Below, piece by piece: positions 1 to 47,533 of a stretch of DNA of 64,000 nucleotides (position 1 is its first letter; every line of letters begins with the position of its first letter). The DNA is from a virus (taxonomy: Duplodnaviria > Caudoviricetes). Below the pieces are notes generated by a model. The model saw nothing but the letters and a program-made list of their open reading frames with translations. It had not been told where the DNA came from and did not search any database. Where the stretch lies: the IMG/VR virus record IMGVR_UViG_3300028864_000017, one strand, 5' to 3'. A program made the position numbers and the translations under genes.

Positions 1-1614
1 AATTCTAATTGTGATTATCCTTATAAATTAAACAATTCAATTAATATTGGAGATACTTTTAATTCTACTTGTAATGTGTTTAGTTTAATGCCAACTGAGG
101 TAGAAAAAAACTTAGACTATTTTTATAGAATAGGAAATTTTTTCTCAGGAACTACTGATAATATTGTAAAATATTTAAATCAAACTACTAATATTGAAGT
201 TGATTTTATGGAAATTTATAGTAAAAAATTTAACTTAGAATTATATTTAAATTCTGATATTGACTATTTTGATTATTTTTTCAAAAATAAGTCAAATTTC
301 ACTATTGATGATATTGATTATGTTAAACAAACATTAAAATATTCTACTTTTCAATCTGGTGATAACTATACTGCATCCAATACATTATTTAAAGGATTAA
401 ATATTAATGCGTTAAATGTATCAAATGTATCAAGAGATATCAACGGAAGAATAATAAACATAGTTGCTGATAATAGTAAAAATTTCAATAATTATAAATT
501 TTCAATTATTCTAAATGATGTTTATGAATATTATGTTGATGGATCATATGATTCAACTTATGAAAACGGATTATCTAATAATAAAGTAATAGATAAAACA
601 TCAAATTCCATCCATGTTATTTTAAATGAAAAATTTAAGAATTTTTTAATAGTTATTAATGTTAAAATTCCAATACAAAAAAAATATGTAAATATAAATA
701 ATGTTGCTATTTTTGGAGAAAAATTTGGATTATATAATTCTAAAACATTAGATGGACATAGTTTATCATATCCTGCAACCAATGTTAATGATTTTGATTC
801 ATCTTTAATTGTAGCTTCTAATATATTTGATGCATTTGATGATATGAATACATTATCTGAATTTGATTCTGGTATAACATACTACTATGTTAATTCAATT
901 GGACAATCTGGATATACACATCCAATGAATATCACAGGAGGTACAATGAAAAATGTATCAGATTGGACTAAAAATTATCCACCTTTTATTTTTACATTTA
1001 ATGATCCAAAATTATTAGAAACAAATCAAAACTCTTATATTAAAAGTTCAATAAAAGGACCATCAGTTAATATTTATGATAAATATCAAATTTATTATGA
1101 CAATAATAAAAAACAAAAATATAATGTAACAGATCCTTTAGCAAGATCAATGTATCTAAATAATAATGAAACTATAATGAATACATCAAATGGAGTATCA
1201 TCAACGAATTCAATATATAGATATAACGGATCATACGAACCAATATTCAATAATGTGTCAATATTTAATAATGTATCTTTATATTTATCTGGTGATACTA
1301 TAAAATCATGGAATTCAAATTATAAATTTGATACAACATATGAAAATTTTGGAAGAATAGAAGAGTTGATGTATTCAAAAATAAATCCTATATCATCGCC
1401 ATTAAAATTGAAAAATACTGATACTGATTTATCAATTTACCCAATGGTGGATGAATTCGGTTATGAGTTCAGTTCAAGATTTATATTTAATTCATCTTGG
1501 GATAAAGATTTTTATGTTATTACTAATAGTGATCAAAATATGAATAATAATATATTTTCTAATTATTCTCATGTGGAATATATAATAGATCCTATAAAAA
1601 CTATAAATGATTAA
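1..1614 (+). CDS. Large putative virion structural protein, 5'-truncated by the window edge
   Basis: Frame is open from base 1 into the 76..1614 ORF; N/S/T/Y-rich; lies in a structural-type block. Confidence 0.5.
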   Translation, partial: NSNCDYPYKLNNSINIGDTFNSTCNVFSLMPTEVEKNLDYFYRIGNFFSGTTDNIVKYLNQTTNIEVDFMEIYSKKFNLELYLNSDIDYFDYFFKNKSNFTIDDIDYVKQTLKYSTFQSGDNYTASNTLFKGLNINALNVSNVSRDINGRIINIVADNSKNFNNYKFSIILNDVYEYYVDGSYDSTYENGLSNNKVIDKTSNSIHVILNEKFKNFLIVINVKIPIQKKYVNINNVAIFGEKFGLYNSKTLDGHSLSYPATNVNDFDSSLIVASNIFDAFDDMNTLSEFDSGITYYYVNSIGQSGYTHPMNITGGTMKNVSDWTKNYPPFIFTFNDPKLLETNQNSYIKSSIKGPSVNIYDKYQIYYDNNKKQKYNVTDPLARSMYLNNNETIMNTSNGVSSTNSIYRYNGSYEPIFNNVSIFNNVSLYLSGDTIKSWNSNYKFDTTYENFGRIEELMYSKINPISSPLKLKNTDTDLSIYPMVDEFGYEFSSRFIFNSSWDKDFYVITNSDQNMNNNIFSNYSHVEYIIDPIKTIND

Positions 1615-1940
1615 TGAAAAATATTAAGCAATTCGAATCTTATCTATATGAATCTGAGAGTTATTGGCTTTTACCAACTGATGATAGATTTAAAAAATCT
1701 CTAATTCAAATAAAATGTGATAGAGACAAAATGAAAGAATTTTTGAATAATAGTAGAATACGAAATATGAAATATGTATTTATTTGTTATAAGCCATATT
1801 CACTTAACGAATGGGGTTGGAATCCATATAATGGTAAAATGACTAATGATTCATTTGAATCTGATAATTATCAATTTATGGGCACTGTAAATATAGATTT
1901 AAATGATGTAGAAATAGCAGTAAATAAATTTAACTTATAA
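1614..1940 (+). CDS. Small paralog 1 of tandem array (N-leader + KFNL tag)
   Basis: MKNIKQFE...YWLLPTDDRF...WGWN...AVNKFNL*. Confidence 0.8.
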   Translation: MKNIKQFESYLYESESYWLLPTDDRFKKSLIQIKCDRDKMKEFLNNSRIRNMKYVFICYKPYSLNEWGWNPYNGKMTNDSFESDNYQFMGTVNIDLNDVEIAVNKFNL

Positions 1941-2281
1941 TGAAATATATTAAAAAATTTGAAAAATATAGTCAAAAAATGTATTGGCTAATACCAACAG
2001 ATAAAAGATTTAAAAAATCACTAAAACAATTGAATTTCTCTATTGAAAAAATAAAAGGTTTTTCAAATAGCAAAGAAATAAAAAAACATAATTATATATT
2101 TGTAGGTTATAATCCAAATCTAAATTCAAATAATAATAATAATATTGATGATTATAATTGGGGCTGGAATAGATACAGAGGTAAGCCAACTGAAGATTAT
2201 TATGAAGATAATAATTATAAATTTATGGGTAATATAAACATAGATGAATCTGAATTCGCCGCAAATAAATTTAACTTATAA
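1940..2281 (+). CDS. Small paralog 2 of tandem array (N-leader + KFNL tag)
   Basis: MKYIKKFE...YWLIPTDKRF...WGWN...AANKFNL*. Confidence 0.8.
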   Translation: MKYIKKFEKYSQKMYWLIPTDKRFKKSLKQLNFSIEKIKGFSNSKEIKKHNYIFVGYNPNLNSNNNNNIDDYNWGWNRYRGKPTEDYYEDNNYKFMGNINIDESEFAANKFNL

Positions 2282-2616
2282 TGAAATATATTAAAAAATT
2301 CGAAAATAAAAGAAATTCTAAAAGGAAATATTGGTTACTTCCAACTGATGATAGATTTGTAAAATCATTAAAACAAATAAATTGTACAGATAGAAAAATA
2401 AGGGGATTTTTAGATAGTAGCAGCTTAAAAGAATGTAAATATATATTTGTTGGATATGACAATTCTAATAACAATTTTAATGTGGATGATAAATGGGGTT
2501 GGAATGAATATAAAAATAAATTGACTGATAATTATTATGAAGATAATAATTATAAATTTATGGGTATTGTAAATATAGATGATTCAGAATTAGCAGCAAA
2601 TAAATTTAATATATAA
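2281..2616 (+). CDS. Small paralog 3 of tandem array (N-leader + KFNI tag)
   Basis: MKYIKKFE...YWLLPTDDRF...WGWN...AANKFNI*. Confidence 0.8.
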   Translation: MKYIKKFENKRNSKRKYWLLPTDDRFVKSLKQINCTDRKIRGFLDSSSLKECKYIFVGYDNSNNNFNVDDKWGWNEYKNKLTDNYYEDNNYKFMGIVNIDDSELAANKFNI

Positions 2617-2619
2617 AAT

Positions 2620-2967
2620 ATGAAATATTTAAAATTCTTTGAAGATGATTTATATGATGATACAATATATTGGTTAGTTCCAACAGATAAAAGATTCAAA
2701 AATTCTCTAAAACAAATAAGTTGTCCTAAAGACAGAATTCAAAATTATGTTAAGTATGCATTGGAAAATGTATTAACAATAAAAGATTATAGAAGAAATT
2801 ATATGTATATTGTTTATCATCCAGAATATGAACCTCTTAAAAAATGGGGATATGAGTACTATGATGAAGGTATAAATGACAAATGGATGGATAAAAAAGG
2901 TTATAAATTCGGCGGTATAATAAACATAGATGAATCTGAGTTAGTTGCTAATAAATTCAACATATAA
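2620..2967 (+). CDS. Small paralog 4 of tandem array (N-leader + KFNI tag)
   Basis: MKYLKFFE...YWLVPTDKRF...VANKFNI*. Confidence 0.8.
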   Translation: MKYLKFFEDDLYDDTIYWLVPTDKRFKNSLKQISCPKDRIQNYVKYALENVLTIKDYRRNYMYIVYHPEYEPLKKWGYEYYDEGINDKWMDKKGYKFGGIINIDESELVANKFNI

Positions 2968-2983
2968 AAAAAATTAAAAAATA

Positions 2984-6480: not shown

Positions 6481-6514
6481 ATAAAAAAGACTGTCAATTG
6501 ACAGTCTTTTTTAT
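6481..6514. terminator. Bidirectional intrinsic terminator (perfect 34-bp palindrome)
   Basis: ataaaaaagactgtcaa|ttgacagtcttttttat between convergent genes. Confidence 0.8.
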
Positions 6515-6936
6515 ATATTGAATTTATCAGATGATTTTTTTATTAGGAAGTTATCATAATTTTCTTTTGTTAATTTTTCAATACAATTTGGAATATCTTT
6601 TTCTGTTATATCAAAATAAATATAATTAAGATTAATATCGACATCAAAAATTTCATAAATAAAATCAACAAGATTTTCATTCTCATTTAAATTTGCATGA
6701 TACACATTAATTTTAATAAACTGTAAATTCATAGTTCTCATTTTATATGAATCAATAGTCAATAATCTAAGATTATTGAAATTATTATTTATTGATATAA
6801 ATCTTCCGTTTTTTTCATAATAACATTTTAAATTATAATCAATTGAATTAATAAAATTAACTAATGATTCTGCTAATTTAATAGTAGGACTTGTTTTTTT
6901 ACTAAAAAAATCTAAAAAACTTTCATACATCATCAT
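6511..6936 (-). CDS. Hypothetical protein, KFNI tag; paralog of 6939..7352
   Basis: MMMYESFL...IEKLTKENYD.F..K.SSDKFNI*. Confidence 0.75.
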   Translation of the reverse strand: MMMYESFLDFFSKKTSPTIKLAESLVNFINSIDYNLKCYYEKNGRFISINNNFNNLRLLTIDSYKMRTMNLQFIKINVYHANLNENENLVDFIYEIFDVDINLNYIYFDITEKDIPNCIEKLTKENYDNFLIKKSSDKFNI

Positions 6937-6938
6937 AA

Positions 6939-7352
6939 TTATAAATTAAATTTATTTGCAGTATATTTAATGGAAAAATCATCAAAATTTTCTTTTGTTA
7001 ATTTTTTTATTACATATTTAATATCATCAATTGATACAGTAATATCTAAAATCGTCATATAATCTTTATTAAAAAGATGTAACAAAAATTCAATCACATG
7101 ACCACCTAGTATTGAATAATTCTGATTATAATGAAAATCACAATTGATATTATAGTATGATTTGTGATCACCTTTAACTATTTTAAATACAAATTTGTTC
7201 GAATTTGCATATATCCAAACATCATCATCAAATTTTTTATAACTCCAATTACATTCAGGCTTAACTATATTTAAAAAAATTATAATAGCATCAGCGAATT
7301 TAACTTCAATTGGATTAAATATTGTTTTTAAAAAACTCTCATACATCATCAT
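6939..7352 (-). CDS. Hypothetical protein, KFNL tag; paralog of 6511..6936
   Basis: MMMYESFL...IKKLTKENFD.F..KYTANKFNL*. Confidence 0.75.
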   Translation of the reverse strand: MMMYESFLKTIFNPIEVKFADAIIIFLNIVKPECNWSYKKFDDDVWIYANSNKFVFKIVKGDHKSYYNINCDFHYNQNYSILGGHVIEFLLHLFNKDYMTILDITVSIDDIKYVIKKLTKENFDDFSIKYTANKFNL

Positions 7353-7355
7353 AAT

Positions 7356-8174
7356 TTATAAATTGAATTTTGCCATATCATCGTCCAAATTAAAAACATT
7401 AGTTATCTTACAATAGTATATAGAAGTAAATTTAATTCCTACTATTTCTTTATGCTCTTTTACTTTTGCTGTCATATATACAACATCATTTTTTCTAAGA
7501 GTTCTGCCAATATTATAAGCTATATATCTATTACCATCATCATCTATTAGTTTGCAGGTATATTGTGTTCCAAATGCGCTCTGAGTTGTATTAAAATTAT
7601 AAACAGTTGCTTTTATTTCAATTTTTTTACCAACTTCTCCTATATATTTACTTGTACTTTCTTCTTGGTTTTTCTTTGTCAATGTTTCAAAAAATAATTT
7701 TTTATATTCTTGAATTTCTTTTGCCATATCAGCATTTCCATTAAAATCTTTAGATAACCAAACAACATATTGAGGATCTTCTACAAATACTTCTCCAATT
7801 GTTTGCCCTCTATGTTTTCCAAATGTTAAGATTTTATTTTTTTCTGCTTGAAAAAGTCCAGCATATGTTCCAAATCTATCAATTATTACTTGAATCCTAC
7901 CTGAAGCTTTAGCTGCTTTTTTAACTGCAGTCATAAAGTCAGTACTTAGATTACAAATATAATAACAAGATGCAGATTTTGGATTCCATCTCCAAAATGT
8001 ATAATATACTGAGTATTTACCAGATACATCTATATAAAAACAACCAACATCTTTCATTGAATCTGGATCTTTTCCTTCTGCTAATATTTTTTCAGCTTCT
8101 TCAATTTCTTCATCACTTGGTTGAATGAGTTTAGACATTTTAGCTTCTTTGATGTATTGTAAATAATTTTTCAT
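7356..8174 (-). CDS. Multidomain protein: FGKH-type small domain + C-terminal OB-fold-like domain, tagged at both ends
   Basis: LTFGKHRGQTIGEV...PQYVVWL (exonuclease-X C-terminal/DUF3820-like); YIGEVGKKIEIKATV...DDDGNRY...VKEHKE (OB-like); ends MAKFNL*. Confidence 0.55.
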   Translation of the reverse strand: MKNYLQYIKEAKMSKLIQPSDEEIEEAEKILAEGKDPDSMKDVGCFYIDVSGKYSVYYTFWRWNPKSASCYYICNLSTDFMTAVKKAAKASGRIQVIIDRFGTYAGLFQAEKNKILTFGKHRGQTIGEVFVEDPQYVVWLSKDFNGNADMAKEIQEYKKLFFETLTKKNQEESTSKYIGEVGKKIEIKATVYNFNTTQSAFGTQYTCKLIDDDGNRYIAYNIGRTLRKNDVVYMTAKVKEHKEIVGIKFTSIYYCKITNVFNLDDDMAKFNL

Positions 8175-8178: not shown

Positions 8179-8949
8179 TTATAAATTAAATTTATTTAAA
8201 TTAAATTCTTTTTCAATATGAGTAATATTCTCTATATTATCATTATGTTCTTTCTGTTTTGATAATAATTTTTCCAATTCTTGATATTTATCAAATCCGA
8301 ATAATTTAGCGTTTTCAATTTCTTTTTTCTGATCAGAATTTAATATTATTCTATTTTTACTAATTATTTTAATTTCACGTAGACTTCCACTACTATATAT
8401 TGATATGTTATATTTATCATTAAGGTTATGTGTATCTATTATGTCATTAATTATGTTTGTTTCTTTTTCTTCTTCTATTTTTTCACTATTATTAAAACTT
8501 CTTGTTCTGAATCTAATGTAATAATATGACTTAAATTTTTCATCATTAACTTCTCTAGAAATTATATCAGACATGTGATTTCCTATTTTGGAAAAATATT
8601 TACCATTTTTCTCGTAAATAATAAATCTATTATAACCTAATTTTCCTGAATTGCAGTCATCATATATATCAATATAATCATTATTAATTATCATATTAAA
8701 CATTTTATGTAATTGAACAGTTACTGTATCTATTATAGGAATAAAGAATGATTCAGATAAATTTGAAAATCCAAAAAATGGCATTTCACATTTCACATTT
8801 AGTTCATTTTCAATATCAGTTTTAAAAATATTAAATATATTATAATCTTCAAAGTGATATGTTATCATTTTTAAATTCGAAAAAAACTCTCTAATATCAG
8901 TTATTTTTTTATTCATATAATTTTCATTGTGATGTTTGATATATTTCAT
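8179..8949 (-). CDS. Hypothetical protein with N-leader and KFNL tag
   Basis: MKYIKHHNE...NLNKFNL*. Confidence 0.7.
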   Translation of the reverse strand: MKYIKHHNENYMNKKITDIREFFSNLKMITYHFEDYNIFNIFKTDIENELNVKCEMPFFGFSNLSESFFIPIIDTVTVQLHKMFNMIINNDYIDIYDDCNSGKLGYNRFIIYEKNGKYFSKIGNHMSDIISREVNDEKFKSYYYIRFRTRSFNNSEKIEEEKETNIINDIIDTHNLNDKYNISIYSSGSLREIKIISKNRIILNSDQKKEIENAKLFGFDKYQELEKLLSKQKEHNDNIENITHIEKEFNLNKFNL

Positions 8950-9611: not shown

Positions 9612-10472
9612 TTATTTTCCTTTCCATACTAATTTATATTCATATGTTCCTGGTAGCATTATAATTTCTCTTTGATTAGTATGATAGTATTTCTTTGGTA
9701 ACATCTGTACATCAACTAAAATGTCATCTGGTGAAGTAGTCATAACTGCAACAAATGGAGGTGTTGATGGTTCATCATCAATAAATCTAATAGCTGTTAA
9801 TATGTTAGTAGTCCAAGAAGTTGGATAATTAAAAAATGATTTTATTGTTTGTCCTTTTTTATAAGGAGAATCTACTTCTGATGAATGTACAATTTGAACT
9901 TCTTCTAATCCTTTATATATTTTTATTGATTCAGTTGGTCTAAATTGTTTCAATTCATCTATAATATTTTGTGTCAATTTTGGTAATCTTAATGATCCTG
10001 ATATATATAAGTATAACCATCTATCAGTTTCTTCTGAATATTTTATTTTTAATCTTGATGTCTTATTTTTATCATACATTACAAATCCTCCTACAAGTTT
10101 GAAACTTACTACATCATTAACATCTTCTATATAAATTTGCCAATCATTCATATAATTCTTTAAAAAATATCCAGAATAACCAGAATGTTCATCTTTAATG
10201 TCCTTCTTATCACTAAAAATATCTTCATCATCTATCATATCAATAAGTCTTTTCTTTTTGTATATTGGCTTATTTAATTTAATTTGATAAATATATTCAC
10301 TACCTGTATCTGAAGCATCTGCTCTATTATATGGAAATATTAAAGCTTTACTAAAATTTTTTTTAGTCAAAGGTTTATCAGAGTATGCATATAAAAAACC
10401 GTCATATTCATCTATTTCATCAAAATCAGTTTCTTTATAATCTACTATTTCATATTTCTTAATATATTTCAT
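9612..10472 (-). CDS. Putative ADP-ribosyltransferase-fold protein with N-terminal leader
   Basis: C-terminal IYKG...PTSWTTNILTAIRF...NQREII resembles the R-STS-QxE ART pattern (R replaced by K); starts MKYIKKYE. Confidence 0.55.
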   Translation of the reverse strand: MKYIKKYEIVDYKETDFDEIDEYDGFLYAYSDKPLTKKNFSKALIFPYNRADASDTGSEYIYQIKLNKPIYKKKRLIDMIDDEDIFSDKKDIKDEHSGYSGYFLKNYMNDWQIYIEDVNDVVSFKLVGGFVMYDKNKTSRLKIKYSEETDRWLYLYISGSLRLPKLTQNIIDELKQFRPTESIKIYKGLEEVQIVHSSEVDSPYKKGQTIKSFFNYPTSWTTNILTAIRFIDDEPSTPPFVAVMTTSPDDILVDVQMLPKKYYHTNQREIIMLPGTYEYKLVWKGK

Positions 10473-10822
10473 ATGTTAAACTTATTTGTCTCTTTTTCTA
10501 ATTTGAATTGTTTTATATCTTGTTTTGTGACTTCAATTTCTCCTTGATACTCAAATCTACCTCGTTCTATATTACCTTTAACATATTCATCATAAATACA
10601 CCATTTAAAGTTATTAAAATTTCTATTTGGATCATATGTTATATAAATTTTATTATTCTTTTTTTTGTATGTGTACATTGAAAATGTTTCATCATCTTTA
10701 ATGTTTTTATAACAATTTAATGCATCAATTTTTTTCATACTTATTTCAAAATATGGCTCACGTACATTAACTACCCAATATTTTTTTTCATTAATACCTT
10801 CAAAAAATTTTATGTATTTCAT
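10469..10822 (-). CDS. Distant member of the 1614-2967 paralog family (leader + KFNI tag)
   Basis: Preferred start MKYIKFFE at 10822; KKYWVV...IYITY...W...FEYQGEIEV...TNKFNI*. Confidence 0.7.
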   Translation of the reverse strand: MKYIKFFEGINEKKYWVVNVREPYFEISMKKIDALNCYKNIKDDETFSMYTYKKKNNKIYITYDPNRNFNNFKWCIYDEYVKGNIERGRFEYQGEIEVTKQDIKQFKLEKETNKFNI

Positions 10823-13308
10823 TCCCATCTATCATTATAAATATTTTTAGTGAATAATTTTTTAGTAGCATTATCTGCTAATATCAAATTATTAGAATCT
10901 TGCACAACTCTCTGTAACAATAAATTAGATTTAGATTCATCAGGAATTACATCATCATATATTCTAATATTAGTTAATTTAATATCAGATGAATTTATTG
11001 TTATAGTTTGATCTATATTAAATGTGTTTAATGGAACAACAGAATTATTATATCCATCAACATATTTTATTGATGCAAGTTTATATAAACTAGTATCAGG
11101 TAATCTGGTAGCTATTTCAGTATTTTTAACTGGTCTATATCCATTTGAGTTATAATATGTAATACCAGATGTGTTAGTATTATCTAATATAACACTCTTA
11201 TAATCATGTGTAAACATTGTTATTTTATAATTGTATCTTCTTTTAAATAAATCTAAACTCACTTCTCTTTGTCTATTATCTAAATTTACAGTTAAACCGT
11301 ACCACATATTTGTTGTTAATCCTGTTGCAGTTAAACTATAATCAATATTATTTATAGTTAATGAAATTTTACTATTTTTATATGATAATTTATATCCTTT
11401 GTTATTAATTGAATCATAATTATTTAAAAATTCGAAATTACTAGTACTATTGATATTATATGACCTAAATGTACTTTCATCAATTGCTTTATTTGTATCG
11501 TAAATATTATTAAAATTGAACCAAACATTAAATGATCTATTATCACTAACTTTCAAATTTGAATCTTTGTAAGTATATGACACGGCTGTAATTCCAGATG
11601 GTAAAGAAGATAAATTATAATAACTATCAGCTATTTTTATATCCTTTAAAGAATTATAAATATCCTTTTTAATTATATTTAATTTAGGATTTACATTTAA
11701 TCTATAAACTTCATGTGTAATTGGTTTTAATTGTTTACTTACTATTTTATCTTCTTGCTCTCTTATCTCAACTCCAAATAATGAATCAATAGTATTATTA
11801 TTTGTTAATATATCTATCAAATTTGTTGATTTAGTAGAAAGATTTTTTTCATTTGCAAGTTTTTCATATTTTTCAAGTACAACATTATAATAAATACCCA
11901 TATACATCACATCTCTTTTTACTTGAGCACTTTTTACTCTGTACATACGATTTGCCTGGCAAAAAAATATTATATCTTTTTGTGACGGTCTTTTTTCAAT
12001 TCCAAACGCATTATGAAATTCATCTTTTAGTATTATAACTTGAAAGGTGTCCATCATATCTAGCATATATTCATTCACTTGAACTTGATTATCAGGAAAT
12101 GTATTTTCAGGTACTATTATTTTAATTTTTTGTGTATCTACTATATTATATAATTGATATTCATGAAGAATACTATCAATTCCTTTTCCGTCTGGATCTG
12201 TTAAATGATAATCAACTGTCCATCCGAATATTTTACCTACAGTGTTTGCTAAATATGCATACCAATTACCAATTTTAATAGATCCAGCATATGGATTAAA
12301 AATACCATCTGATGCTGCTGTTTGGGTTGAATTGAATCCAGGATCATTAACTTGTGAGCTTAACTTTGTTACTACATTTCCTGATAAATAACAACTCAAT
12401 CCCTTTGTTATCCAATCTCTATTATAATCAATTGCTCCTCCAGTTTGATAAATTGTTGTTCCACATAAACATATAGCATTTGGATTATCAACATAATCAA
12501 TGGTTGTACCAGTATTTAGGGATGGATATGTCAAAGAGCAATCCTCTCTAACTCCATATCTATTAAGTTTAAGATAATTTTTATTAATATTTTGAAAATC
12601 TCCTAATAATATTATATCGTATATTTTAGATGTAATTCCATTTGTTTTTTTAGAAACAGAATATTCAACTTGAGCAAATCTGATAGGATTTATTTTTACT
12701 GTTGATATATTTTCAGTTGTTAAAGGTTCCCATGGAGTATATGTTCTACCATTATCTTGAGTAAATCTATATTTAATTTGTAAATTATTTGTATTTACAC
12801 CATAAACTTCATATCCTGTTAATTTGAAAACTTTATAAATATTTTTAGGACTAAATATTATAAAATCATCATCTGGTATATCGACAATGGTATCAGTTTC
12901 CTCAATATTATAAGTTCCTTCAATTACAATTGTGTTTATTGCTAATGTAGGTATTGTATCAATATTTTCATCAATTCTATAATATGATAGATTTAAATAT
13001 AAGTCATTCAATGCACAATACACTTGAGTAATTCCTGTAATAGGCATAGATTCACTATAGCTCACTTCACTATAACTTACTCCACTTCTTAAATTACTAT
13101 AAGAAAAATATTTTTTAAAATAATGTTCATCTGTTTCACCTTTTATTACATCTGTGAAATTTGTAATTGATGATATACTTTTTAATGGTACAATTGAAAA
13201 TGTTTTAATATCACGAAGTTGAGTTGAGATTTCATCTGTATACATTGGAGCACCTATCCAACTCATTGTAAATGTACCATCAAATTTAGGCGTATAAATA
13301 TATCTCAT
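10819..13308 (-). CDS. Extended T4 gp14-like neck/head-completion protein with extra N- and C-terminal domains
   Basis: Central FG..VDY..TDP...D.IL.EY.LYN...VPEN.FP...F...FG...RP..KDII.F...RMY.V pattern; C-terminal LamG-like strands (FNVWF, WYGLTVNL, LTNIRIYD). Confidence 0.55.
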   Translation of the reverse strand: MRYIYTPKFDGTFTMSWIGAPMYTDEISTQLRDIKTFSIVPLKSISSITNFTDVIKGETDEHYFKKYFSYSNLRSGVSYSEVSYSESMPITGITQVYCALNDLYLNLSYYRIDENIDTIPTLAINTIVIEGTYNIEETDTIVDIPDDDFIIFSPKNIYKVFKLTGYEVYGVNTNNLQIKYRFTQDNGRTYTPWEPLTTENISTVKINPIRFAQVEYSVSKKTNGITSKIYDIILLGDFQNINKNYLKLNRYGVREDCSLTYPSLNTGTTIDYVDNPNAICLCGTTIYQTGGAIDYNRDWITKGLSCYLSGNVVTKLSSQVNDPGFNSTQTAASDGIFNPYAGSIKIGNWYAYLANTVGKIFGWTVDYHLTDPDGKGIDSILHEYQLYNIVDTQKIKIIVPENTFPDNQVQVNEYMLDMMDTFQVIILKDEFHNAFGIEKRPSQKDIIFFCQANRMYRVKSAQVKRDVMYMGIYYNVVLEKYEKLANEKNLSTKSTNLIDILTNNNTIDSLFGVEIREQEDKIVSKQLKPITHEVYRLNVNPKLNIIKKDIYNSLKDIKIADSYYNLSSLPSGITAVSYTYKDSNLKVSDNRSFNVWFNFNNIYDTNKAIDESTFRSYNINSTSNFEFLNNYDSINNKGYKLSYKNSKISLTINNIDYSLTATGLTTNMWYGLTVNLDNRQREVSLDLFKRRYNYKITMFTHDYKSVILDNTNTSGITYYNSNGYRPVKNTEIATRLPDTSLYKLASIKYVDGYNNSVVPLNTFNIDQTITINSSDIKLTNIRIYDDVIPDESKSNLLLQRVVQDSNNLILADNATKKLFTKNIYNDRWE

Positions 13309-13358
13309 GTTTAATTATTTTATATTTATATTATATATAAATTTTTGGATGCTAAATT

Positions 13359-13368
13359 TTATATATAA
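13359..13368 (+). promoter_or_regulatory. Putative late promoter TTATATATAA
   Basis: 14 nt upstream of the structural operon start at 13383. Confidence 0.4.
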
Positions 13369-14166: not shown

Positions 14167-15036
14167 GTGGCTAAAATAACTAGTAATTCACTTAGTAGTA
14201 AAATAAAAAGAGAAATAAAAAATTGGGATAGAGATTTTAGAACATCTGATGGGCCTCAAACTTCAACATTATTAAGTCTTAGTGATATTGAAATATCATA
14301 TGAATCATGCTACAATGCAAGATTAATACTACCTGCTTACACTGAAAATTTTTTACTAGATTATGGAACATCAGGAGAATCTACTTTTTTATTAATAAAA
14401 GTTATTTATAATGGAAATTATAGTAGTACTAATGAGAGTTCTTATGATCCTTACTATTACTTTGATGAAAGTACATATAATATAAATTATTATTATGATT
14501 CTGATTCAGGTACAACATTTCCAATAGGTAGATTACTACTTTTAAATGGCTCTCTTACAAATAAAATAGGAAAAATTTATTTGAATAATCCTTCTGATTA
14601 CGATGTGGCATTAGATGTTATGCAAGCAAATATTGATTATCCTCCTGCTATTCCTCCAAGTAGTGCTATAACAATATCAAATTTATATTTTAATGACATT
14701 ATTACCAATCAAGTAAATTGTGAATCTATTAGCGGAATTACAACAGGATCAACAGAATTTATTATTAGTGAATATAAACCATCAGGAACAGGTTATACAA
14801 TATTTAAATATTATATTCCATATAATACTATTACATCATTGAGTTTAGATACAACACTAAATTATATATATTTAGGTACTACATCAACTTATTATACTAT
14901 TAAATTTTTAACAAATTTTGATAGTCAACAATCATATAATAGAATAATATTTTCATATTCTTCATATACATCAGATGTTTGTAGATATTTAACTAGTGAT
15001 GTAGCATATGATAATGGAATTATCACTAATTGTTAA
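14167..15036 (+). CDS. Putative structural protein; paralog of 13383..14156
   Basis: GTG start at 14167 gives MAKITSNSL, matching MAIITPNSL of the paralog; the track start at 14122 is probably too early. Confidence 0.55.
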   Translation: MAKITSNSLSSKIKREIKNWDRDFRTSDGPQTSTLLSLSDIEISYESCYNARLILPAYTENFLLDYGTSGESTFLLIKVIYNGNYSSTNESSYDPYYYFDESTYNINYYYDSDSGTTFPIGRLLLLNGSLTNKIGKIYLNNPSDYDVALDVMQANIDYPPAIPPSSAITISNLYFNDIITNQVNCESISGITTGSTEFIISEYKPSGTGYTIFKYYIPYNTITSLSLDTTLNYIYLGTTSTYYTIKFLTNFDSQQSYNRIIFSYSSYTSDVCRYLTSDVAYDNGIITNC

Positions 15037-15054
15037 AATTAAAATATTAAATTA

Positions 15055-16308
15055 ATGAATATTATATATAACCCACATATATTATATAGCGTAACTGACA
15101 CTACTACTGACTATTATAAAGTAAGTTCAGGTATAAGTTCAGGTATTAATATTTATAGCGGATTTACTCTAAATATTGGTGATTTTGATAGAAATATAAT
15201 CAATAGGGTAGATATTATTAGTAATGTTATAAATTATATATCAGATGATGAAAATGAAAATGAAAATATAAATAGATTTCAATTAAATACCTTAATTGTT
15301 GATACTAATCAAATATATGAAAATATAACTAAAACAGGTAATTATTGTATTAAATTTTCATATGATGATAATGATGAAGATGATGATATAGCAGATTATC
15401 TTATTATGAATATAATTGATTTGAAAATAAATACAACAACAACTACAACATTTAGAATAATATCGACAACTACAACAACAAATATTAAAGAATCAGAAGG
15501 ACCAATTATTTATTATAAATATCCTATTAGCGGAACAACTTGGACTGGCGGAGGAACAATAGTACCTCACGATGCAAGGTTGCATTTATCTCATGACGGA
15601 ATAACTGGATGGACATCAGATAGTTTAAAATATTTATTTATTGATAGAATAATAGATTGCTTTAATTTGAATATATCATTAGATAATATTATTTTCTATT
15701 TATATGTAATTGATAAAAATATTATATTACCTGAAATAATTGAATATGGAATTTATAATATTTATATTTCAGTTTCAGATTATGTCGGCAATACTACATC
15801 AAGTTATATTTATAATATTATTGTTAATGATAGTGTTCCTGAAATTGTATTTATACCTAATGTTTTAACAACAGAAATAACAGGTAACACAAGTGATTTT
15901 TCAAATGCATCTGGAATAACTGGTGAAATTTATATTGAGAGTGGATTTACTCTTACTCTTAATCAATTTGATAAAAATATTATTCATACAATTGATATTA
16001 TTAATAATCTTATACTTTACATAGATGATGCTACTGATCCTAATATCAATAAATATTATTCAAATGTTTTAATTGTAGGAGAAAAATTTTCAGATTATGA
16101 AAATATAATATATCCTAATATTCAAAATCCTGGATATTATTGCATAAAAATATCAATAACAAACAATATAGGAAATGAAGGAATTTATTATTTTATTTTA
16201 AAGGTAACATATAATATTAGTATTTTTTCTCAAGGATATTGGCAAGATGGTAAAGTTTGGATAGATTCTTCTATATGGATAGATAATCCTATTATATCTA
16301 AAGTATAA
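15055..16308 (+). CDS. Putative structural protein with an internal domain duplication
   Basis: SGFTL...FD.NII...DII.N.I.YI.D...IN....N.LIV...YENI...G.YCIK occurs twice; poly-Thr linker. Confidence 0.55.
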   Translation: MNIIYNPHILYSVTDTTTDYYKVSSGISSGINIYSGFTLNIGDFDRNIINRVDIISNVINYISDDENENENINRFQLNTLIVDTNQIYENITKTGNYCIKFSYDDNDEDDDIADYLIMNIIDLKINTTTTTTFRIISTTTTTNIKESEGPIIYYKYPISGTTWTGGGTIVPHDARLHLSHDGITGWTSDSLKYLFIDRIIDCFNLNISLDNIIFYLYVIDKNIILPEIIEYGIYNIYISVSDYVGNTTSSYIYNIIVNDSVPEIVFIPNVLTTEITGNTSDFSNASGITGEIYIESGFTLTLNQFDKNIIHTIDIINNLILYIDDATDPNINKYYSNVLIVGEKFSDYENIIYPNIQNPGYYCIKISITNNIGNEGIYYFILKVTYNISIFSQGYWQDGKVWIDSSIWIDNPIISKV

Positions 16309-16352
16309 AGATTAATTTAAATATATACATAAATAAATAAATAAATTATAAT

Positions 16353-18359: not shown

Positions 18360-18360
18360 T

Positions 18361-36353: not shown

Positions 36354-37694
36354 TTATAATAATTCATTAGCTATATTTGCTAATTCAGATCTTTCACCTT
36401 TCTCTAATGTTACATGAGCATAAATTGCCTGATTTTTTATCTTTGCTATTAAATGTGATAATCCATTACTTTGTGCATCCAAATATGGAGTATCAATTTG
36501 ATTTATATCACCAGTAAAAATAATTTTAGTTCCTTCTCCTGCTCTTGTTATAATTGTTTTAATTTCATGTGGAGTTAAATTTTGAGCTTCATCAACAATG
36601 AAAAATACATTAGATATACTACGACCACGAATATAAGCTAATGGAGTAATAACTAATTTTTCATCTTTAACGCAATCTTGAATAAATTTATATTCTTTAT
36701 CACTATCTTTGAATTGACTTTGTATAAATTTTAGATTATCCCAAAGTGGAAGCATATATGGACTTATTTTCTCATCAACTGAGCCAGGAAGATAGCCTAA
36801 ATCCTTACCACTCAATGGTATAATTGGTCTAGCTAAAAATATTTGTTTAAAATTTCTCTTCTGACTAAGTGCTGCAGCTAATGCCAATAAAGTTTTTCCT
36901 GTTCCAGCAACTCCTTGTAACGATACTAGTTTGACATCAGGGTTTAGTAATGCATGTAATGCGAATACTTGCTCAGAATTTCTTGGTGTTATTTTATAAC
37001 AAGTTTCTTTATCAATTCTTTCAACCATTTTTTTTGATGCATTGTAATATGCTAATGCAGATGCTGCCGAAATAGTTGATTTAATAATAAGATATTTATT
37101 GTTTAGTAAATTTGTAATTCCAAGTTCTTGAGGAGTACAAACATTATCTTGATATAATTTAGTAATAATGTCATCATTATCTAATTCTATTGTTGATCTA
37201 CCTGTGAATAATTTATCAGTATCTTTAATTTTACCTGTTAAATAATCTTCTGAGTTAACATTTAAAGATTTTGCTTTTAATCTTAAATTTATATCTTTTG
37301 ATACAAGTATAATCTTTTTATCAGGATATTCCTCTACCAATGACAATGCGGTATTTAAAATTAAATGATCTGGTTTTGTTGATTTGAAAACTAAACAAGC
37401 ATCAGTTGTTCCAGTTGTTTCATTCATCACTACTTTTACTCTACCTTTTCCTTTGCCAATAGGAATCCACTCACTTAAATTACATTTTGATGCTAATTTG
37501 TCTGTTTTTCTAATAAATTCTCTTGCTTCATAATTAATTGTATCATTACCTTTTTTGAAATCATCTAATTCTTCGAATACTGTAATAGGAATTGCAACAT
37601 CATTTTCTTCAAAATTGTAAATTGCATTGTGATCGTAAAGTATTACACTTGTGTCAAGTACAAATATTTTATCACTTTTTTCTTTTTTAGCCAT
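36354..37694 (-). CDS. phoH: PIN-domain PhoH-family ATPase (PhoH2/YlaK-like)
   Basis: N-terminal PIN VLDTSV...ELD; Walker A GVAGTGKT; YIRGRS; IVDEAQN; GD..QID; ERSELA. Confidence 0.9.
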   Translation of the reverse strand: MAKKEKSDKIFVLDTSVILYDHNAIYNFEENDVAIPITVFEELDDFKKGNDTINYEAREFIRKTDKLASKCNLSEWIPIGKGKGRVKVVMNETTGTTDACLVFKSTKPDHLILNTALSLVEEYPDKKIILVSKDINLRLKAKSLNVNSEDYLTGKIKDTDKLFTGRSTIELDNDDIITKLYQDNVCTPQELGITNLLNNKYLIIKSTISAASALAYYNASKKMVERIDKETCYKITPRNSEQVFALHALLNPDVKLVSLQGVAGTGKTLLALAAALSQKRNFKQIFLARPIIPLSGKDLGYLPGSVDEKISPYMLPLWDNLKFIQSQFKDSDKEYKFIQDCVKDEKLVITPLAYIRGRSISNVFFIVDEAQNLTPHEIKTIITRAGEGTKIIFTGDINQIDTPYLDAQSNGLSHLIAKIKNQAIYAHVTLEKGERSELANIANELL

Positions 37695-37724
37695 TTATTT
37701 TAATTATTTTTTTGTTTGTTATTA

Positions 37725-38213
37725 TTAATTTTTATTATATATTTTATATGTATGGTCATAATCATTCTTTTCGTCTTTTGATTTAAATTCTTCTGATACA
37801 CAATACCATTTATCGTCAAGTTCTGGAAAAGTTGTATCTCCATCTATAATAGTAAGAACTACAGTCAAATATACAGTATCTGAAATATCTAAAAATTGTT
37901 TGTATATACTACCACCTCCTGTTATAAAAACTTCATCTCCATACATGTTAGCTGTTTCTAATGCATCTTCTATTGAATATACTGGAATAGTATCAGGTTC
38001 ATTAAAACTCTTGTCTAATGTCAATACTATATTTGTTCTATTTGGTAATGCTCCTTTTGGTAAAGAATAAAATGTTTTATCACCCATGATAATAGGTTTA
38101 TTAAGAGTCAATTCTTTGAATTTTTTAAGATCACTGCTTAATCTCCACAATAATTTATTATCTTTTCCTATCACCAAATTTTCTGATACTGCTACAATTA
38201 TATTTACTTTCAT
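37725..38213 (-). CDS. folA: Dihydrofolate reductase
   Basis: IIVAVSEN.VIG.DNKL.W....DLKKFKELT...IIMG.KT..SLP...LPNR.NIVLT; GGGSIY. Confidence 0.95.
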   Translation of the reverse strand: MKVNIIVAVSENLVIGKDNKLLWRLSSDLKKFKELTLNKPIIMGDKTFYSLPKGALPNRTNIVLTLDKSFNEPDTIPVYSIEDALETANMYGDEVFITGGGSIYKQFLDISDTVYLTVVLTIIDGDTTFPELDDKWYCVSEEFKSKDEKNDYDHTYKIYNKN

Positions 38214-42160: not shown

Positions 42161-42742
42161 ATGAGATATATTAAAAATTATGAGGAAAAAATTAACGAAG
42201 AATTTAAAATACCTCAATTTATTAGAAATTATAAAGAAACAGGAGATTTAATAAAAGATAAAGTATATGAAAATCTTCAAATCGCAAAAGATAAAATAAA
42301 TGATCCCGAAAATATTCGTAAATTAAATGATTTTTTAGATAATGTAGAAGAGACAACTACAAAAATTTCTAATACAATGAAAAATAATAGAAATCTAAAA
42401 ATAATAGAAAATATGTTGACTGGTAGTAAATGGATTGCTATTGTAACATCAGTTTACCAATTAATATTTAATACTACAATATCACTCACTAGTTTTAGTT
42501 TAGGTGGAATAGGGGCAATTAAAATTGCATTGTTTTTATACATATTAAAATTAATAGTTAATATATTTAGGAATTATAATAATTTTATATCCTTGACAAA
42601 AGCAGCTAAAGATTTTGTCATTAATATAACCAAAATATTTAAGACTACTAATAATTCAAACAATCCTGTCATAAATAATAATTCGTCTGATAATATTAGT
42701 GAAAGTTATATTCTATATTTGACAGAAAAAGGAATTATATAA
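42161..42742 (+). CDS. Leader-tagged protein with two hydrophobic helices
   Basis: MRYIKNYEEKINEE start; WIAIVTSVYQLIF...IALFLYILKLIV. Confidence 0.65.
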   Translation: MRYIKNYEEKINEEFKIPQFIRNYKETGDLIKDKVYENLQIAKDKINDPENIRKLNDFLDNVEETTTKISNTMKNNRNLKIIENMLTGSKWIAIVTSVYQLIFNTTISLTSFSLGGIGAIKIALFLYILKLIVNIFRNYNNFISLTKAAKDFVINITKIFKTTNNSNNPVINNNSSDNISESYILYLTEKGII

Positions 42743-42756: not shown

Positions 42757-43065
42757 ATGAATCACGTAAAATTAATTACAGAGATGTATAATAAAAATCC
42801 AGAGTATGAAACAAACTCATTTGGATGGAAAATTCCAGTAAGAAATTATATTGATGATGTATTTGATCATATATCATACATATATTGTAATGATAAACAT
42901 ATAAGTGAAAAATCATTTAATCAATTAGATGAAGCAGATTCTTATATAAAAAGTATTTTTGATAATAATTCAGAAATATTAGAAGAAATTAATAATCTTA
43001 AAGATAAAAGAATAGAGTATACAGCAGAGTTTATTTATGATAGATATTTTAAAAATGTAAATTGA
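42757..43065 (+). CDS. Hypothetical protein (leader-like start)
   Basis: MNHVKLITE. Confidence 0.6.
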   Translation: MNHVKLITEMYNKNPEYETNSFGWKIPVRNYIDDVFDHISYIYCNDKHISEKSFNQLDEADSYIKSIFDNNSEILEEINNLKDKRIEYTAEFIYDRYFKNVN

Positions 43066-43069: not shown

Positions 43070-43408
43070 ATGAAAGTAAATAAATATAAAGAATATTTAA
43101 AATTTAAAGATAAGTATGAAATTATTAGACAAGAAATTATGAATCTAATAGAAGAATATTATATTTTTAATGATAATTTCAGAATAGAACATCTTGGAGA
43201 TACAAAGCATAGCTATATGTCAATTACTAATTTAAATAAATCTGATGAAAAAGATTATGAAACTGGAGAATATTGGTATTGGGTTGAATACCACTATCCG
43301 TATGCAGATAAAAATTTTGATAAAATAAGTCAAAGTGAATTTGATGATATTATGAAATTTATAGACAATCCTGAAGTATATAAAAAAGCAAAAAAATTTA
43401 ACTTGTGA
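43070..43408 (+). CDS. Hypothetical protein with leader and KFNL tag
   Basis: MKVNKYKEY...AKKFNL*. Confidence 0.7.
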   Translation: MKVNKYKEYLKFKDKYEIIRQEIMNLIEEYYIFNDNFRIEHLGDTKHSYMSITNLNKSDEKDYETGEYWYWVEYHYPYADKNFDKISQSEFDDIMKFIDNPEVYKKAKKFNL

Positions 43409-43409: not shown

Positions 43410-43694
43410 ATGAAAGTAAATAAATTTGAAGAAATAAACGAAAGTTCAAGAGTAAGAGGATATTATATTAATTCTGAAAATGGTGAATTAAGAACAGGAT
43501 ATACTCACAATTCTAATATTTTTTTAACTGATGAAGAATATAAAAGAATAAAAGGATTAGCAGATAGTATTAAAGCATCTTGTGAAAATTATAATGATAT
43601 GAAAGAAACTAAAATTTCAATGCTAAGAGCAGCAATACATAAAGTTAAAGATGATTCTGAATTTATGAAGACAACAAATAAATTTAATATTTAA
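43410..43694 (+). CDS. Hypothetical protein with leader and KFNI tag
   Basis: MKVNKFEEINE...TTNKFNI*. Confidence 0.7.
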   Translation: MKVNKFEEINESSRVRGYYINSENGELRTGYTHNSNIFLTDEEYKRIKGLADSIKASCENYNDMKETKISMLRAAIHKVKDDSEFMKTTNKFNI

Positions 43695-45148: not shown

Positions 45149-46093
45149 ATGATAAAAAAATATAACATGTTTCTATTAAATGAAAATATATCTATGTCAA
45201 ATGAAGATATAATTGAAATACTAAAATCATTAGAGACAGAAGACAATAAAAACTCTATTTTAATTAAAAGATTAGTTAATTATACTGATAAAAGTGGTAA
45301 GAATGTACTAATGAGCGTAGTATCATCTAATAATATTGATTTAATAGATTATATTTTGAAATTTGATGTAAATTTAAACCAAGTAGTAACAAGTACTGGA
45401 GAAAACGTATTATTTTTTTGTAAAAACATTAATGTATTTAAAAAATTATATGAATTAGGAGCCAATGCGAATCAAATTACTAAAATTGATCGTACAGTAT
45501 TAAATTCACTATCAAGAAAGAAATTATTTAATGTTGAGTTATATCAAAAAATAATTACAGATGATGTTGATATAAATAAAATTGATATGAATAATGAATC
45601 TGTTCTTACTGGATCTATATTAAATAAAAAAATATTGGAATTATTATTAAATAACAATGTGAATTTGAATGGATTGGATCAATCAAATTTTTTATATAGG
45701 TTATCTTATGAACTAAATTATTATCCTAAAAAACAAAATATAATATTAGACATATTTAAAATCCTATTTAAAAATGGAATGATAATTCAAAACGAGACAA
45801 ATTTTATAAATATATTAAGATTAGATTCAAATAATATAGATATTATATATGATTTCATTGTTCCACTAAATAAATATATAACTGATAATATGATAATATT
45901 AATTTATGATAAATTATGTCATGAATCTGGAATGGATAGAATAAAGATGGCTAATAAATTATTGAGATTAGGCTCATATCCTAAATTCTACAATAAGTTA
46001 AAAAATAGTTTTAGAGAACAATTCTATATCGAATTCGCTGATTATATAAAGGAGAATCCATTTTATGAAGATGCCGAAAAATTTAACTTGTAA
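45149..46093 (+). CDS. Ankyrin-repeat protein with leader and KFNL tag
   Basis: D.SGKNVLM..V..NN.D....IL..DVNLN; GENVL...ELGANAN; DINKID.NNESVL; ends AEKFNL*. Confidence 0.7.
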   Translation: MIKKYNMFLLNENISMSNEDIIEILKSLETEDNKNSILIKRLVNYTDKSGKNVLMSVVSSNNIDLIDYILKFDVNLNQVVTSTGENVLFFCKNINVFKKLYELGANANQITKIDRTVLNSLSRKKLFNVELYQKIITDDVDINKIDMNNESVLTGSILNKKILELLLNNNVNLNGLDQSNFLYRLSYELNYYPKKQNIILDIFKILFKNGMIIQNETNFINILRLDSNNIDIIYDFIVPLNKYITDNMIILIYDKLCHESGMDRIKMANKLLRLGSYPKFYNKLKNSFREQFYIEFADYIKENPFYEDAEKFNL

Positions 46094-46095
46094 TA

Positions 46096-46105: not shown

Positions 46106-46112
46106 CACAAAT

Positions 46113-46475
46113 ATGAAACATTTAAAAAAATTTGAGACTAATTATAACTATAGTAGCACTGAGCCATATATTATAGAATTTGAAATAGTAAATAAAATAA
46201 TTGAGTTTATTAAAACAAATAAGTTGAAATATATTGACAATATTAAAATATATGATGGTGAATATTATATAACATTAGGAAAAATTGGAAATTATGACAA
46301 TACTTTATTGAAATATAAATATCCAGGTGATGAGCCAATAGAAATTATGATAGGCATACCTAGAAATGAAGGAGTTGATATTAATAATAGTATATTAGAA
46401 CAAATAAGAAAATTAACAGAAGAAGATATTAACGTTCTACATACTAAACAAGCATCATCAAAATTTAACATATAA
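46113..46475 (+). CDS. Hypothetical protein with leader and KFNI tag
   Basis: Preferred start MKHLKKFE at 46113 (track start 46065 overlaps the previous gene); ends IRKLTEE...SSKFNI*. Confidence 0.7.
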   Translation: MKHLKKFETNYNYSSTEPYIIEFEIVNKIIEFIKTNKLKYIDNIKIYDGEYYITLGKIGNYDNTLLKYKYPGDEPIEIMIGIPRNEGVDINNSILEQIRKLTEEDINVLHTKQASSKFNI

Positions 46476-46496
46476 CACAAAAATAACATAAAAATT

Positions 46497-46985
46497 ATGG
46501 AATATTACGATCAATCGTATTTAGACTTATTCAAAAAAGTTAATACCCAAAAAATTGAAACATCAAATCAATCATATGAACAATTAAGAGGAAATGATAA
46601 CTCATTTAATTCTCAAATGTTAAAAGAAACTCCTGATTATACTAATTATAACAAAAATTATAGTAATTTTAATAATCAAAATTTAAATGAAGTAAGAAGA
46701 CAAGAATACTCACAAGATTTCAATATTAATGAATTTAATATTGAAACAAGAGTAAATGGTCAGATTATAAATGAAGTTAAACAAGAGGAAAAAGGAAATA
46801 AGTTAAATGAAGTTATGCAAAAACTTCGTGACGAAAGACTAAATGAAATTAAACAATCACAAGAACTTCAAAGTTTAAATGAAAATATTGATTTTTCAAA
46901 TTCTGATTACATATCAGTAGAAATGTTTGAAAAAGCAAGATACAATTCAATGATGCAAGTCGCTAATAGAATTAATCCAAGATGA
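46497..46985 (+). CDS. Asn/Gln-rich hypothetical protein
   Basis: 162-aa ORF. Confidence 0.6.
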   Translation: MEYYDQSYLDLFKKVNTQKIETSNQSYEQLRGNDNSFNSQMLKETPDYTNYNKNYSNFNNQNLNEVRRQEYSQDFNINEFNIETRVNGQIINEVKQEEKGNKLNEVMQKLRDERLNEIKQSQELQSLNENIDFSNSDYISVEMFEKARYNSMMQVANRINPR

Positions 46986-46997
46986 AATATAATAAAA

Positions 46998-47219
46998 ATG
47001 AAATTGGAAATGTTTAAAGAATATTACATAGGAAGAAAAGGTTTTTATCATAATAAAAATGTAATAATTATATCTAACAGATACGATGAAATCGAGTATC
47101 AAGATTTTGGTTTTATTTTTGACAATTTTGAGATTTCTATTTTTTTTGATGATGGTTCTAAAAAAATAGTTAAATTGAAAGGCAATTTAATAAAAAGACA
47201 AATTAAACTAAAATTTTAA
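46998..47219 (+). CDS. Hypothetical protein
   Basis: 73-aa ORF starting MKLEMFKEY. Confidence 0.5.
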   Translation: MKLEMFKEYYIGRKGFYHNKNVIIISNRYDEIEYQDFGFIFDNFEISIFFDDGSKKIVKLKGNLIKRQIKLKF

Positions 47220-47235
47220 AAATGATTTTTATTAT

Positions 47236-47245
47236 TTAATATATA
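47236..47245 (+). promoter_or_regulatory. Putative late promoter TTAATATATA
   Basis: 21 nt upstream of 47267. Confidence 0.45.
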
Positions 47246-47266
47246 CAAAAAAACAGAAACATACAC

Positions 47267-47533
47267 ATGAATAAGATCAAAGATTTTAAACAATATAATG
47301 AAAGTTTATCTTTAACTGAAAAATTGTCAGATTTACAAATAGAATACAGAGAATATTTCAAATTTATACTTGATTGTTATGATGTAAAATCACCAGCCAA
47401 ATTATCAGATGAAAAGAAAAGTGAATTCTTTGATAACGTAAACAAGTATTGGACTAAAGGAAAAGGTGCAACTAAAGATTTAGATAAAATAAAAATAGAT
47501 ATCTGCGGTGAAGAAAAAGTAATTAAAAAATAA
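47267..47533 (+). CDS. Small putative head-associated protein
   Basis: MNKIKDFKQYNE leader; YREYF...YDVKSPAKLSDEKKSEFF....K.W. Confidence 0.55.
   Translation: MNKIKDFKQYNESLSLTEKLSDLQIEYREYFKFILDCYDVKSPAKLSDEKKSEFFDNVNKYWTKGKGATKDLDKIKIDICGEEKVIKK

Follow-up and report, generated by a model that had tools for sequence, protein, structure and literature searches.

We analysed a window of 64,000 bp from a virus of the Caudoviricetes (IMG/VR record IMGVR_UViG_3300028864_000017), in which many small open reading frames (ORFs) encode proteins that begin with a short leader peptide, typified by MKYIKKFE, and usually end in a short tag, KFN[LI]. The window spans bases 13610-77609 of a linear 97,084-bp record (contig G000) with a GC content of 24%; CheckV puts the completeness of this contig at 14%, which implies a genome of ~700 kb. 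The source is an AT-rich huge phage of the Mahaphage clade, and shares 58% identity in its family-B DNA polymerase with LR756501/LR756503, an “uncultured phage” genome of 735 kb. The published huge-phage study, in which a 735-kb genome is described, places its largest genomes in the Mahaphage clade, with Bacteroidetes as predicted hosts. Our comparisons draw on a related 330-kb contig (G001; 596 ORFs) that shares synteny and ~78% protein identity with G000, on a sister lineage (G007), and on low-GC contigs bearing head modules (L282, L286, and L291). The leader system is apparently undescribed and extends clade-wide beyond the window; literature searches for such a leader in huge phages found no description.

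Seventeen ORFs of the window carry the leader. In eight it has the canonical MKY[IL]KxFE-type form, scoring 14-28 bits against a 9-residue matrix that was trained on C-tagged G001 proteins, solely from the region non-syntenic with G000; these are the ORFs at 1614, 1940, 2281, 2620, 9612, 10469 (true start 10822), 42161, and 46065 (true start 46113). The other nine have variant leaders. Four tandem paralogues lie on the forward strand: 1614-1940 (108 aa; leader MKNIKQFE, tag NKFNL; 14.2 bits), 1940-2281 (113 aa; MKYIKKFE, NKFNL; 28 bits), 2281-2616 (111 aa; MKYIKKFE, NKFNI; 28.4 bits), and the last gene of the array, 2620-2967 (115 aa; MKYLKFFE, NKFNI; 24.1 bits). On the reverse strand, a second array begins with 8179-8949 (256 aa; variant leader MKYIKHHNE, tag NKFNL; 2.6 bits), which has the host-type motif TACCTTTG upstream. 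It continues with 7356-8174 (272 aa), which joins an ExoX-like_C domain to the T4-like leader MKNYLQYIKE (Y4, Y7, I8, and E10) and the tag AKFNL, and then with the paralogues 6939-7352 (137 aa; tag NKFNL) and 6511-6936 (141 aa; tag DKFNI), both of which have the variant start MMMYESFL. Also on the reverse strand are 9612-10472 (286 aa; MKYIKKYE; 23.5 bits), from which the tag is absent, and 10469-10822 (117 aa from the Met at 10822; MKYIKFFE, NKFNI; 23.3 bits), directly downstream of an 829-aa ORF (10819-13308) that has the class-B promoter motif described below.

The remaining members are all on the forward strand. The product of 42161-42742 (193 aa; MRYIKNYEE, no tag; 18.8 bits) is probably a membrane protein, since it has two long hydrophobic stretches. 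It is followed by 42757-43065 (102 aa, no tag), whose MNHVKLITE, a doubtful variant, may be compared with MNHLKTFE and MNHIKLFE of related contigs, and by 43070-43408 (112 aa) and 43410-43694 (94 aa), with the variant leaders MKVNKYKE and MKVNKFEE and the tags KKFNL and NKFNI, respectively. Further on are a 314-aa ankyrin-repeat protein (45149-46093; variant leader MIKKYNMFLLNE, tag EKFNL), 46113-46475 (120 aa from the Met at 46113; MKHLKKFE, SKFNI; 25.6 bits), and 47267-47533 (88 aa; variant leader MNKIKDFKQYNE, no tag). Class-B promoter motifs lie upstream of 42161-42742, 45149-46093, and 47267-47533. An initial annotation of this DNA had counted about 20 leader proteins and noted that those at 9612, 42161, 42757, and 47267 lack the C-terminal tag. 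All the N-termini that it quoted were found at their ORFs, and the four untagged proteins are indeed untagged; the count falls to the 17 above, because the two “weaker” starts at 38395 and 39695 (ILSLNDF and IKRYSDF) are not supported as leaders.

The leader is a discrete, portable, short, unstructured N-terminal label on unrelated proteins. The linker behind it varies, one homologue having 34 residues inserted between leader and core. Among 403 internal Met positions the top matrix score is 1.4 bits, and the 97-kb contig has 11 matches to a degenerate DNA pattern that encodes M-K-x-[ILV..]-K-x-[FY]-E, all at ORF starts, as compared to none in the reversed control. Untagged proteins show none of the Y3/F7/E8 pattern, just the usual Lys enrichment at positions 2-5, and the leader is therefore a discrete class and not an effect of composition. 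The pattern occurs at >118 loci in IMG/VR, with 32 scattered single matches among 185,579 prokaryotic species genomes, and is thus nearly confined to viruses. A pattern scan of LR756501 (L001; 35% GC) found no strict leader. At 14377-18803 of that genome we observed a six-gene cluster with offset leader variants (including MEKFRKLKTFENY, MNKLKTYKTFEN, MEKFNNLKTYEEY, and MITKFNKYDKVFE) that adjoins two ~670-aa paralogues and a 2816-aa ORF; none of the six proteins ends in KFN[LI].

The scale of the system is best seen in G001, where, among the 596 ORFs, the strict leader is found in 65, a K[FY]N[LIV] ending in 103, and the two together in 60, the genes standing in back-to-back arrays of up to 13. 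The conserved C-terminal module is longer than four residues, with a consensus of approximately [IK]-E-[ED]-[LF]-E-[LIFM]-x-x-N-[ATS]-[NK]-K-F-N-[IL]. In sister lineage G007, 18 genes carry the leader and none the tag, so that the tag, which the initial annotation had called optional, proves to be so at the level of the clade. A protease site preceding the tag was considered and rejected, as the last 12 residues show a depletion of [LIM]xE instead of an enrichment. In G007-type head loci (L293, L300, L303-L306, L308, L311, L320, L321, and L333) a conserved 174-175-aa protein ends ...HLKKFN[LV], although this sub-clade otherwise lacks the tag; it begins like an L282 protein that matches phrog_218 (head closure), and the latter, in a tag-bearing contig, ends ...DLKKYGIIK. 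The tag, KFN[LI], might be a mimic of the natural C-terminus found on such a neck or head-completion protein, which would offer a lead to the tag reader; the likeness could also be due to chance.

Two further sets of proteins with common termini were observed. A second small-protein set in the window (4225-60365) has an R-x-x-K-L-x-K-L-N-x-I-like C-terminal motif, in ORFs ending at 4464, 4636, 33896, 53118, 54127, 54410, 54676, 54923, 55243, 57840, and 60076; several begin with an SH3-like xVGDxVxC strand, and the members inspected have neither leader nor KFN[LI] tag. At 90197-95188 of the G000 contig, ~12.6-17.6 kb past the window, eight ORFs share the N-terminus MK[IV]R[NST]GFVSNSSSSSF.

The tight packing of the arrayed genes bears on a reading that places the conservation in the nucleic acid: the junction of tag codons, stop, start, and leader codons would act as a translational-coupling, promoter, or recombination cassette, with the peptides as by-products. 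Among 124 tags, 63 overlap the next start (as ATGA or TAATG), and codon use is skewed, with 63 AAC codons where 16 are expected and NTA as the last codon in 114; moreover, KFNI-stop can spell TTTAATATATAA, which resembles the class-B promoter. Yet for 27 of the 124 tags the 12 nt downstream contain no ATG, and these keep the AAC skew; some tags stand before terminator-like hairpins. We therefore discarded the notion that the skew serves the downstream start codon, since it stays where no gene follows. One such hairpin (GACTGTCAATTGACAGTC plus a T-run) occupies 6483-6510 of the window, right after the stop of the last tagged gene of its array (6511-6936, behind whose tag there is no gene), and another (GTTCAGATTTCTCTGAAC plus a T-run) has the equivalent place at 2220-2252 of the G000 contig. 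The skew in tags without a nearby start, together with the hairpins after tags, leads us to reject a pure junction-element explanation. The spacing from tag to next ATG also differs from promoter spacing, and no conserved intergenic DNA element combining promoter and stem-loop, as expected of the PeSL-type shuffling cassettes of T4-type phages, was found, the conserved units lying in frame at ORF ends.

Leaders, too, speak against conservation at the nucleic-acid level. Their synonymous codons match genome-wide usage, with enrichment for TAC (Tyr) alone, and at position 4 Ile (ATT/ATA) and Leu (TTA/TTG/CTT/CTA) interchange through unrelated codons, just as Phe/Tyr and Glu/Asp swaps keep the chemistry and not the bases. 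Leaders are also found on array-first genes behind ordinary promoters and 5' untranslated regions, and in a lineage without arrays. Judged by its codons, the leader is under protein-level, not nucleotide-level, conservation, and we consider the nucleic-acid reading very improbable.

The portability of the leader is clearest in the family of ORF 7356-8174, for which we found 87 homologues at 48-89% identity. Before one conserved core stand such different forms as MKTYLQYIKE, MKKYKEFINE, MIKKYNQFNE, MKINKFKQYIKE, MKIQKYNQFNE, MKYIKKYEN, and MITKFNLFEN, and because these interchange at a single position we take the variant starts to be true leader variants. Nearly all of these homologues end in K[FY]N[LIM], and five orthologues begin right after the leader. 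More distant homologues, at 35-38% identity, have neither leader nor tag and end where the core of the tagged proteins ends. As far as these alignments tell, the labels are add-ons to cores that occur without them in other lineages. In the orthologues P0009-P0095, a conserved Met lies 2-4 residues before the core anchor (...NEAQK-M-SSLxQP) in 50 of 78 leader-bearing sequences, and five database proteins start exactly at the Met preceding SSLxQP; this Met, just behind the leader, could be a second start that yields a leaderless isoform.

The cores themselves are diverse. BLAST among the cores of the window detected similarity in just the four-member tandem set (1614-2967) and one pair (6511-7352); recognizable domains in the window leader proteins are ankyrin (45149-46093) and ExoX-like_C (7356-8174), and the 31 longest members in G001 include 10 ankyrin proteins and one leucine-rich repeat (LRR) protein. 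We examined AlphaFold models from two unrelated families, 1940-2281 and the SH3-like “GDYV” family of G001, in which the cores have a predicted local distance difference test (pLDDT) score of 90-96 and the leaders one of 46-47 (for 1940-2281: leader 47, core ~90, tag 44). The final residues of the tag are flexible in both models, and in the GDYV model a well-predicted helix just before them packs on the core. A fold search with the 1940-2281 core against PDB and AFDB clusters returned no match, and that with the GDYV family just weak SH3/Tudor-like rows.

These structures also bear on a second alternative, a single, highly diverged superfamily whose two ends serve as interfaces in assembly: a subunit would bind by its N-end to the C-end of another and so build a mixed polymer, for example an inner body or core, and the ends would have a structural role, not one in sorting. 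The strong co-occurrence of leader and tag (60 of 65 strict leaders) would fit, as would the helix of the C-terminal module packed on the core, and other giant-phage clades do build inner bodies of paralogous proteins. Against it stand the differing core folds (novel alpha/beta, SH3-like barrel, ankyrin, and ExoX-like_C), the use of the leader without the tag in the sister lineage, and the existence of the cores without either end. We regard such a polymer as improbable.

Operons are preceded by an enrichment for two classes of promoter-like motif, a host-type TAnnTTTG motif and a T-tract plus TATATATA (class B). The former we take to be the Bacteroidota -7 promoter element; TATCTTTG, which matches it, is 16-fold enriched upstream of operon-first genes, and these upstream-region motifs thus support a Bacteroidota host. 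The host-type motif, usually TATCTTTG, is seen 14-36 nt before the ATG (e.g. 20541, upstream of NadE, 32655, 39563, and 40222), and the class-B motif 15-28 nt before it (e.g. 13333-13366, 16328, 24928, 42138, and 45121). Leader/tag genes make up 94 of the 219 genes in TATATATA operons as compared to 11 of the 128 in TAnnTTTG operons (odds ratio 8, p=1.6e-12). The initial annotation had named equal occurrence of the motif among early and metabolic genes as a finding that would tell against packaging; instead, leader/tag genes are depleted from the host-type-promoter operons, which hold NAD-salvage enzymes, gp32, and similar genes. The TATATATA motif also precedes a protease-scaffold gene, a tag gene of the head module, a collagen-like tail-fibre gene, and giant ORFs, and most leader genes of the window either lie directly downstream of very large ORFs with this motif or are themselves just behind it. 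From promoter class, the leader/tag genes are predicted to be expressed when proheads are built, and not solely early.

Auxiliary genes of the window lie at 20568-22340, 36354-38213, 55551-56945, and 57852-59738, and include a glutamine-dependent NAD synthetase and an RtcB RNA ligase (both Pfam matches); other ORFs read from sequence as PhoH-like (with a PIN domain), DHFR-like, and Hsp70/DnaK-like (57852-59738). Families in G001 include NAPRTase, isochorismatase, PARG, and Tad4 (anti-Thoeris).

The initial annotation had compared the leader to a T4 capsid-targeting sequence (CTS), and the clade does have a T4-type head. Its head module comprises a gp23-family capsid protein, a T4-type portal, and an S77 (gp21-like) protease fused to a scaffold. 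The scaffold portion contains ~12 repeats of Y[AST]EY[IL]AE (e.g. YSEYIAE), closely like the latter half of the T4 CTS, MKTYQEFIAE, and each with an [LI]AE that agrees with the T4 cleavage rule, which suggests that the rule applies in this clade. The G007 capsid protein and that of LR745206, a genome of 635 kb, share 78% identity; a phmmer search with the former against PDB found no match. The head module is also present on contigs of 24-27% GC (L282, L286, and L291) that share IMG sample numbers with tag-bearing contigs, and L282 additionally encodes a gp55-like late sigma factor within its head module (L282:338-712) and a head-closure protein. In two of these contigs a small gene with both leader and tag lies between portal and protease-scaffold (L282, MKIAKFNE...EKYNL; L286, MKVNRFNE...DKYNL), the position which in T4 is that of the prohead-core genes 67 and 68. 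Pfam S77 and Gp23 matches are confined to G007-type contigs; G000, G001, and G005 have no match to the T4 portal, tail-sheath, or gp25 families of Pfam, and neither PHROGs nor Pfam gives a match for the tag protein of the head module or for most large ORFs nearby. Just beyond the window, at 78979-79134 of the G000 contig (window coordinate 65370-65525), a 51-aa ORF (MEVNLRKLFTYDIVANPAFYNC...) is 54% identical to residues 140-163 of the G007 S77 prohead protease; it may be a protease fragment or a mini-paralogue, remote from any head module.

We tentatively favour a reading of the leader as a CTS-like signal that addresses proteins to the prohead or capsid, and hold it with somewhat less than even confidence; its homology to the T4 CTS is probable. 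Leader/tag genes would be transcribed from the phage's own T-tract plus TATATATA promoter, and the leader would confer on small proteins (ankyrin, LRR, SH3-like, and novel-fold proteins) an affinity for the scaffolding core of a T4-type prohead, by which this cargo would be taken into the head and would subsequently reach the host together with the DNA. The C-terminal module, ~15 residues ending K-F/Y-N-L/I, is a possible second contact or retention signal. Cleavage after the leader Glu would be likely only for variants that end in [LI]xE, such as MKNYLQYIKE, and the canonical MKYIKKFE form may remain uncut. The broader proposal, that a two-ended code loads one to two hundred small binders into the capsid of a ~700-kb phage as an effector library injected with the DNA, we think doubtful; some members of such a putative library may also have a leaderless isoform, from the conserved Met just behind the leader.

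Several findings weigh against a capsid address. Tagging of 103 of 596 ORFs in half a genome is of unprecedented scale, and the leader also occurs on unlikely cargo, the probable membrane protein at 42161 and a NUDIX hydrolase in G007. No head module was detected in G000 or G001 by tblastn with G007 head proteins, such modules being found only in other contigs of the lineage, and the cultured relatives Tenacibaculum phage PTm1 and Chryseobacterium phage MA9V-2 have no strict leader by pattern scan. The array at 8179-6511 is an exception in having a host-type promoter motif, and by crude labelling the TATATATA class also stands before polB, topoisomerase, PhoH, and RtcB genes, so that this class is phage-specific and not-early rather than purely structural. 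Hypervariability of leader/tag genes between G000 and G001 was considered and dropped, the identities of 73% for these and 78% for other genes not differing significantly (p=0.37). Removal of the leader after its Glu, which the initial annotation had carried over from T4, does not fare well by sequence: of the leader/tag proteins, 13% have [LI]xE among their first 10 residues, as have 10% of other small proteins, which equals background, and the canonical leader, with K/T at P3, lacks the [LI]xE cleavage context. The 7356-8174 family has [LI]xE in about a third. Finally, the leader/tag cores are acidic, with a median isoelectric point of 5.1 as compared to 6.7 for other small proteins (67% below 6 and 17% above 8).

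Some of these points would sit better with another reader, and both ends may instead be an address or handle for a different phage-encoded machine: a chaperone (such as the phage's own Hsp70, 57852-59738), a protease adaptor controlling the timing of degradation, or a hub that recruits many small binders inside the infected cell. Cytoplasmic binders or decoys would accord better with acidic cores and a very large membership than would internal proteins embedded in DNA, a membrane protein and a NUDIX enzyme would be less surprising clients, and the label is protein-level, disordered, and virus-specific; the C-end also fits the hydrophobic-x-hydrophobic carboxy-terminal motifs that peptide-binding domains bind. 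No candidate reader was identified, however, and neither the near-identity of some variants to the T4 CTS nor the leader-and-tag gene inside the head module is explained in this way. We rate this alternative as fairly unlikely.

Were the capsid address true, the amount of ready-made protein cargo in huge phages would far exceed that of any phage studied, and some of their “dark” gene content (here one gene in six) would have an explained use; the T4 CTS principle would extend to a distant, uncultivated clade, and protein loading into large capsids would gain a compact natural tag with two ends. Should another reader recognize the ends instead, they still constitute an undescribed sorting system with >100 clients.

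In the T4 CTS, residues 4 and 7 are for targeting and residues 8 and 10 for processing. As with the CTS that T4 internal proteins IPI-III and Alt carry, we describe an N-terminal peptide of ~10 residues common to otherwise unrelated proteins, starting MK, ending with a Glu, and having its aromatic residues spaced 3-4 apart. The resemblance that the initial annotation had claimed is, in some variants, closer than it stated: MKNYLQYIKE of the window and MKKYKEFINE of a 74%-identical orthologue match T4 at key positions 4, 7, 8, and 10, and MKTYLQYIKE (an orthologue) and MKTYQQFNE (G001) are further T4-like forms. The commonest leader, MKY[IL]K[KT][FY]E, differs in having its aromatics at 3 and 7 and its Glu at 8; canonical and T4-like forms nonetheless occupy one position within the 7356-8174 orthologous family. 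The head machinery is likewise homologous (gp23-like capsid protein, gp21-like S77 protease with scaffold), and T4 Alt is processed at both ends, as the present proteins are labelled at both. The systems differ in number, with >100 carriers per half genome here and a handful in T4, in the extra conserved C-terminal module ending KFN[LI], and in charge, the T4 internal proteins being highly basic and the carriers here mostly acidic.

In phiKZ-like giant phages (SPN3US, phiKZ, and 201phi2-1), head and ejection proteins have long N-terminal propeptides; these are believed to target head-internal proteins and to be cut by a Glu-specific prohead protease. These phages are alike in having many head-internal proteins with N-terminal targeting, some of them paralogous, and unlike in that the propeptides are mostly at least 100 residues long, with no one common short peptide and no C-terminal tag, and belong to another clade. 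For the KFN[LI] end, the nearest analogy would be the encapsulin cargo-loading peptide. Such peptides are short, disordered, and usually C-terminal, and load diverse cargo into an HK97-fold shell; they have no sequence similarity to the tag, serve one or few cargo proteins per shell, and are not viral. Other N-terminal tags of huge phages (MNWYK..., MNRYDIALGKKPPP, and two-helix tags) have a similar architecture, each marking dozens of unrelated proteins with a clade-specific sequence. Among these, only in the present lineage is the leader paired with a strict C-terminal tag.

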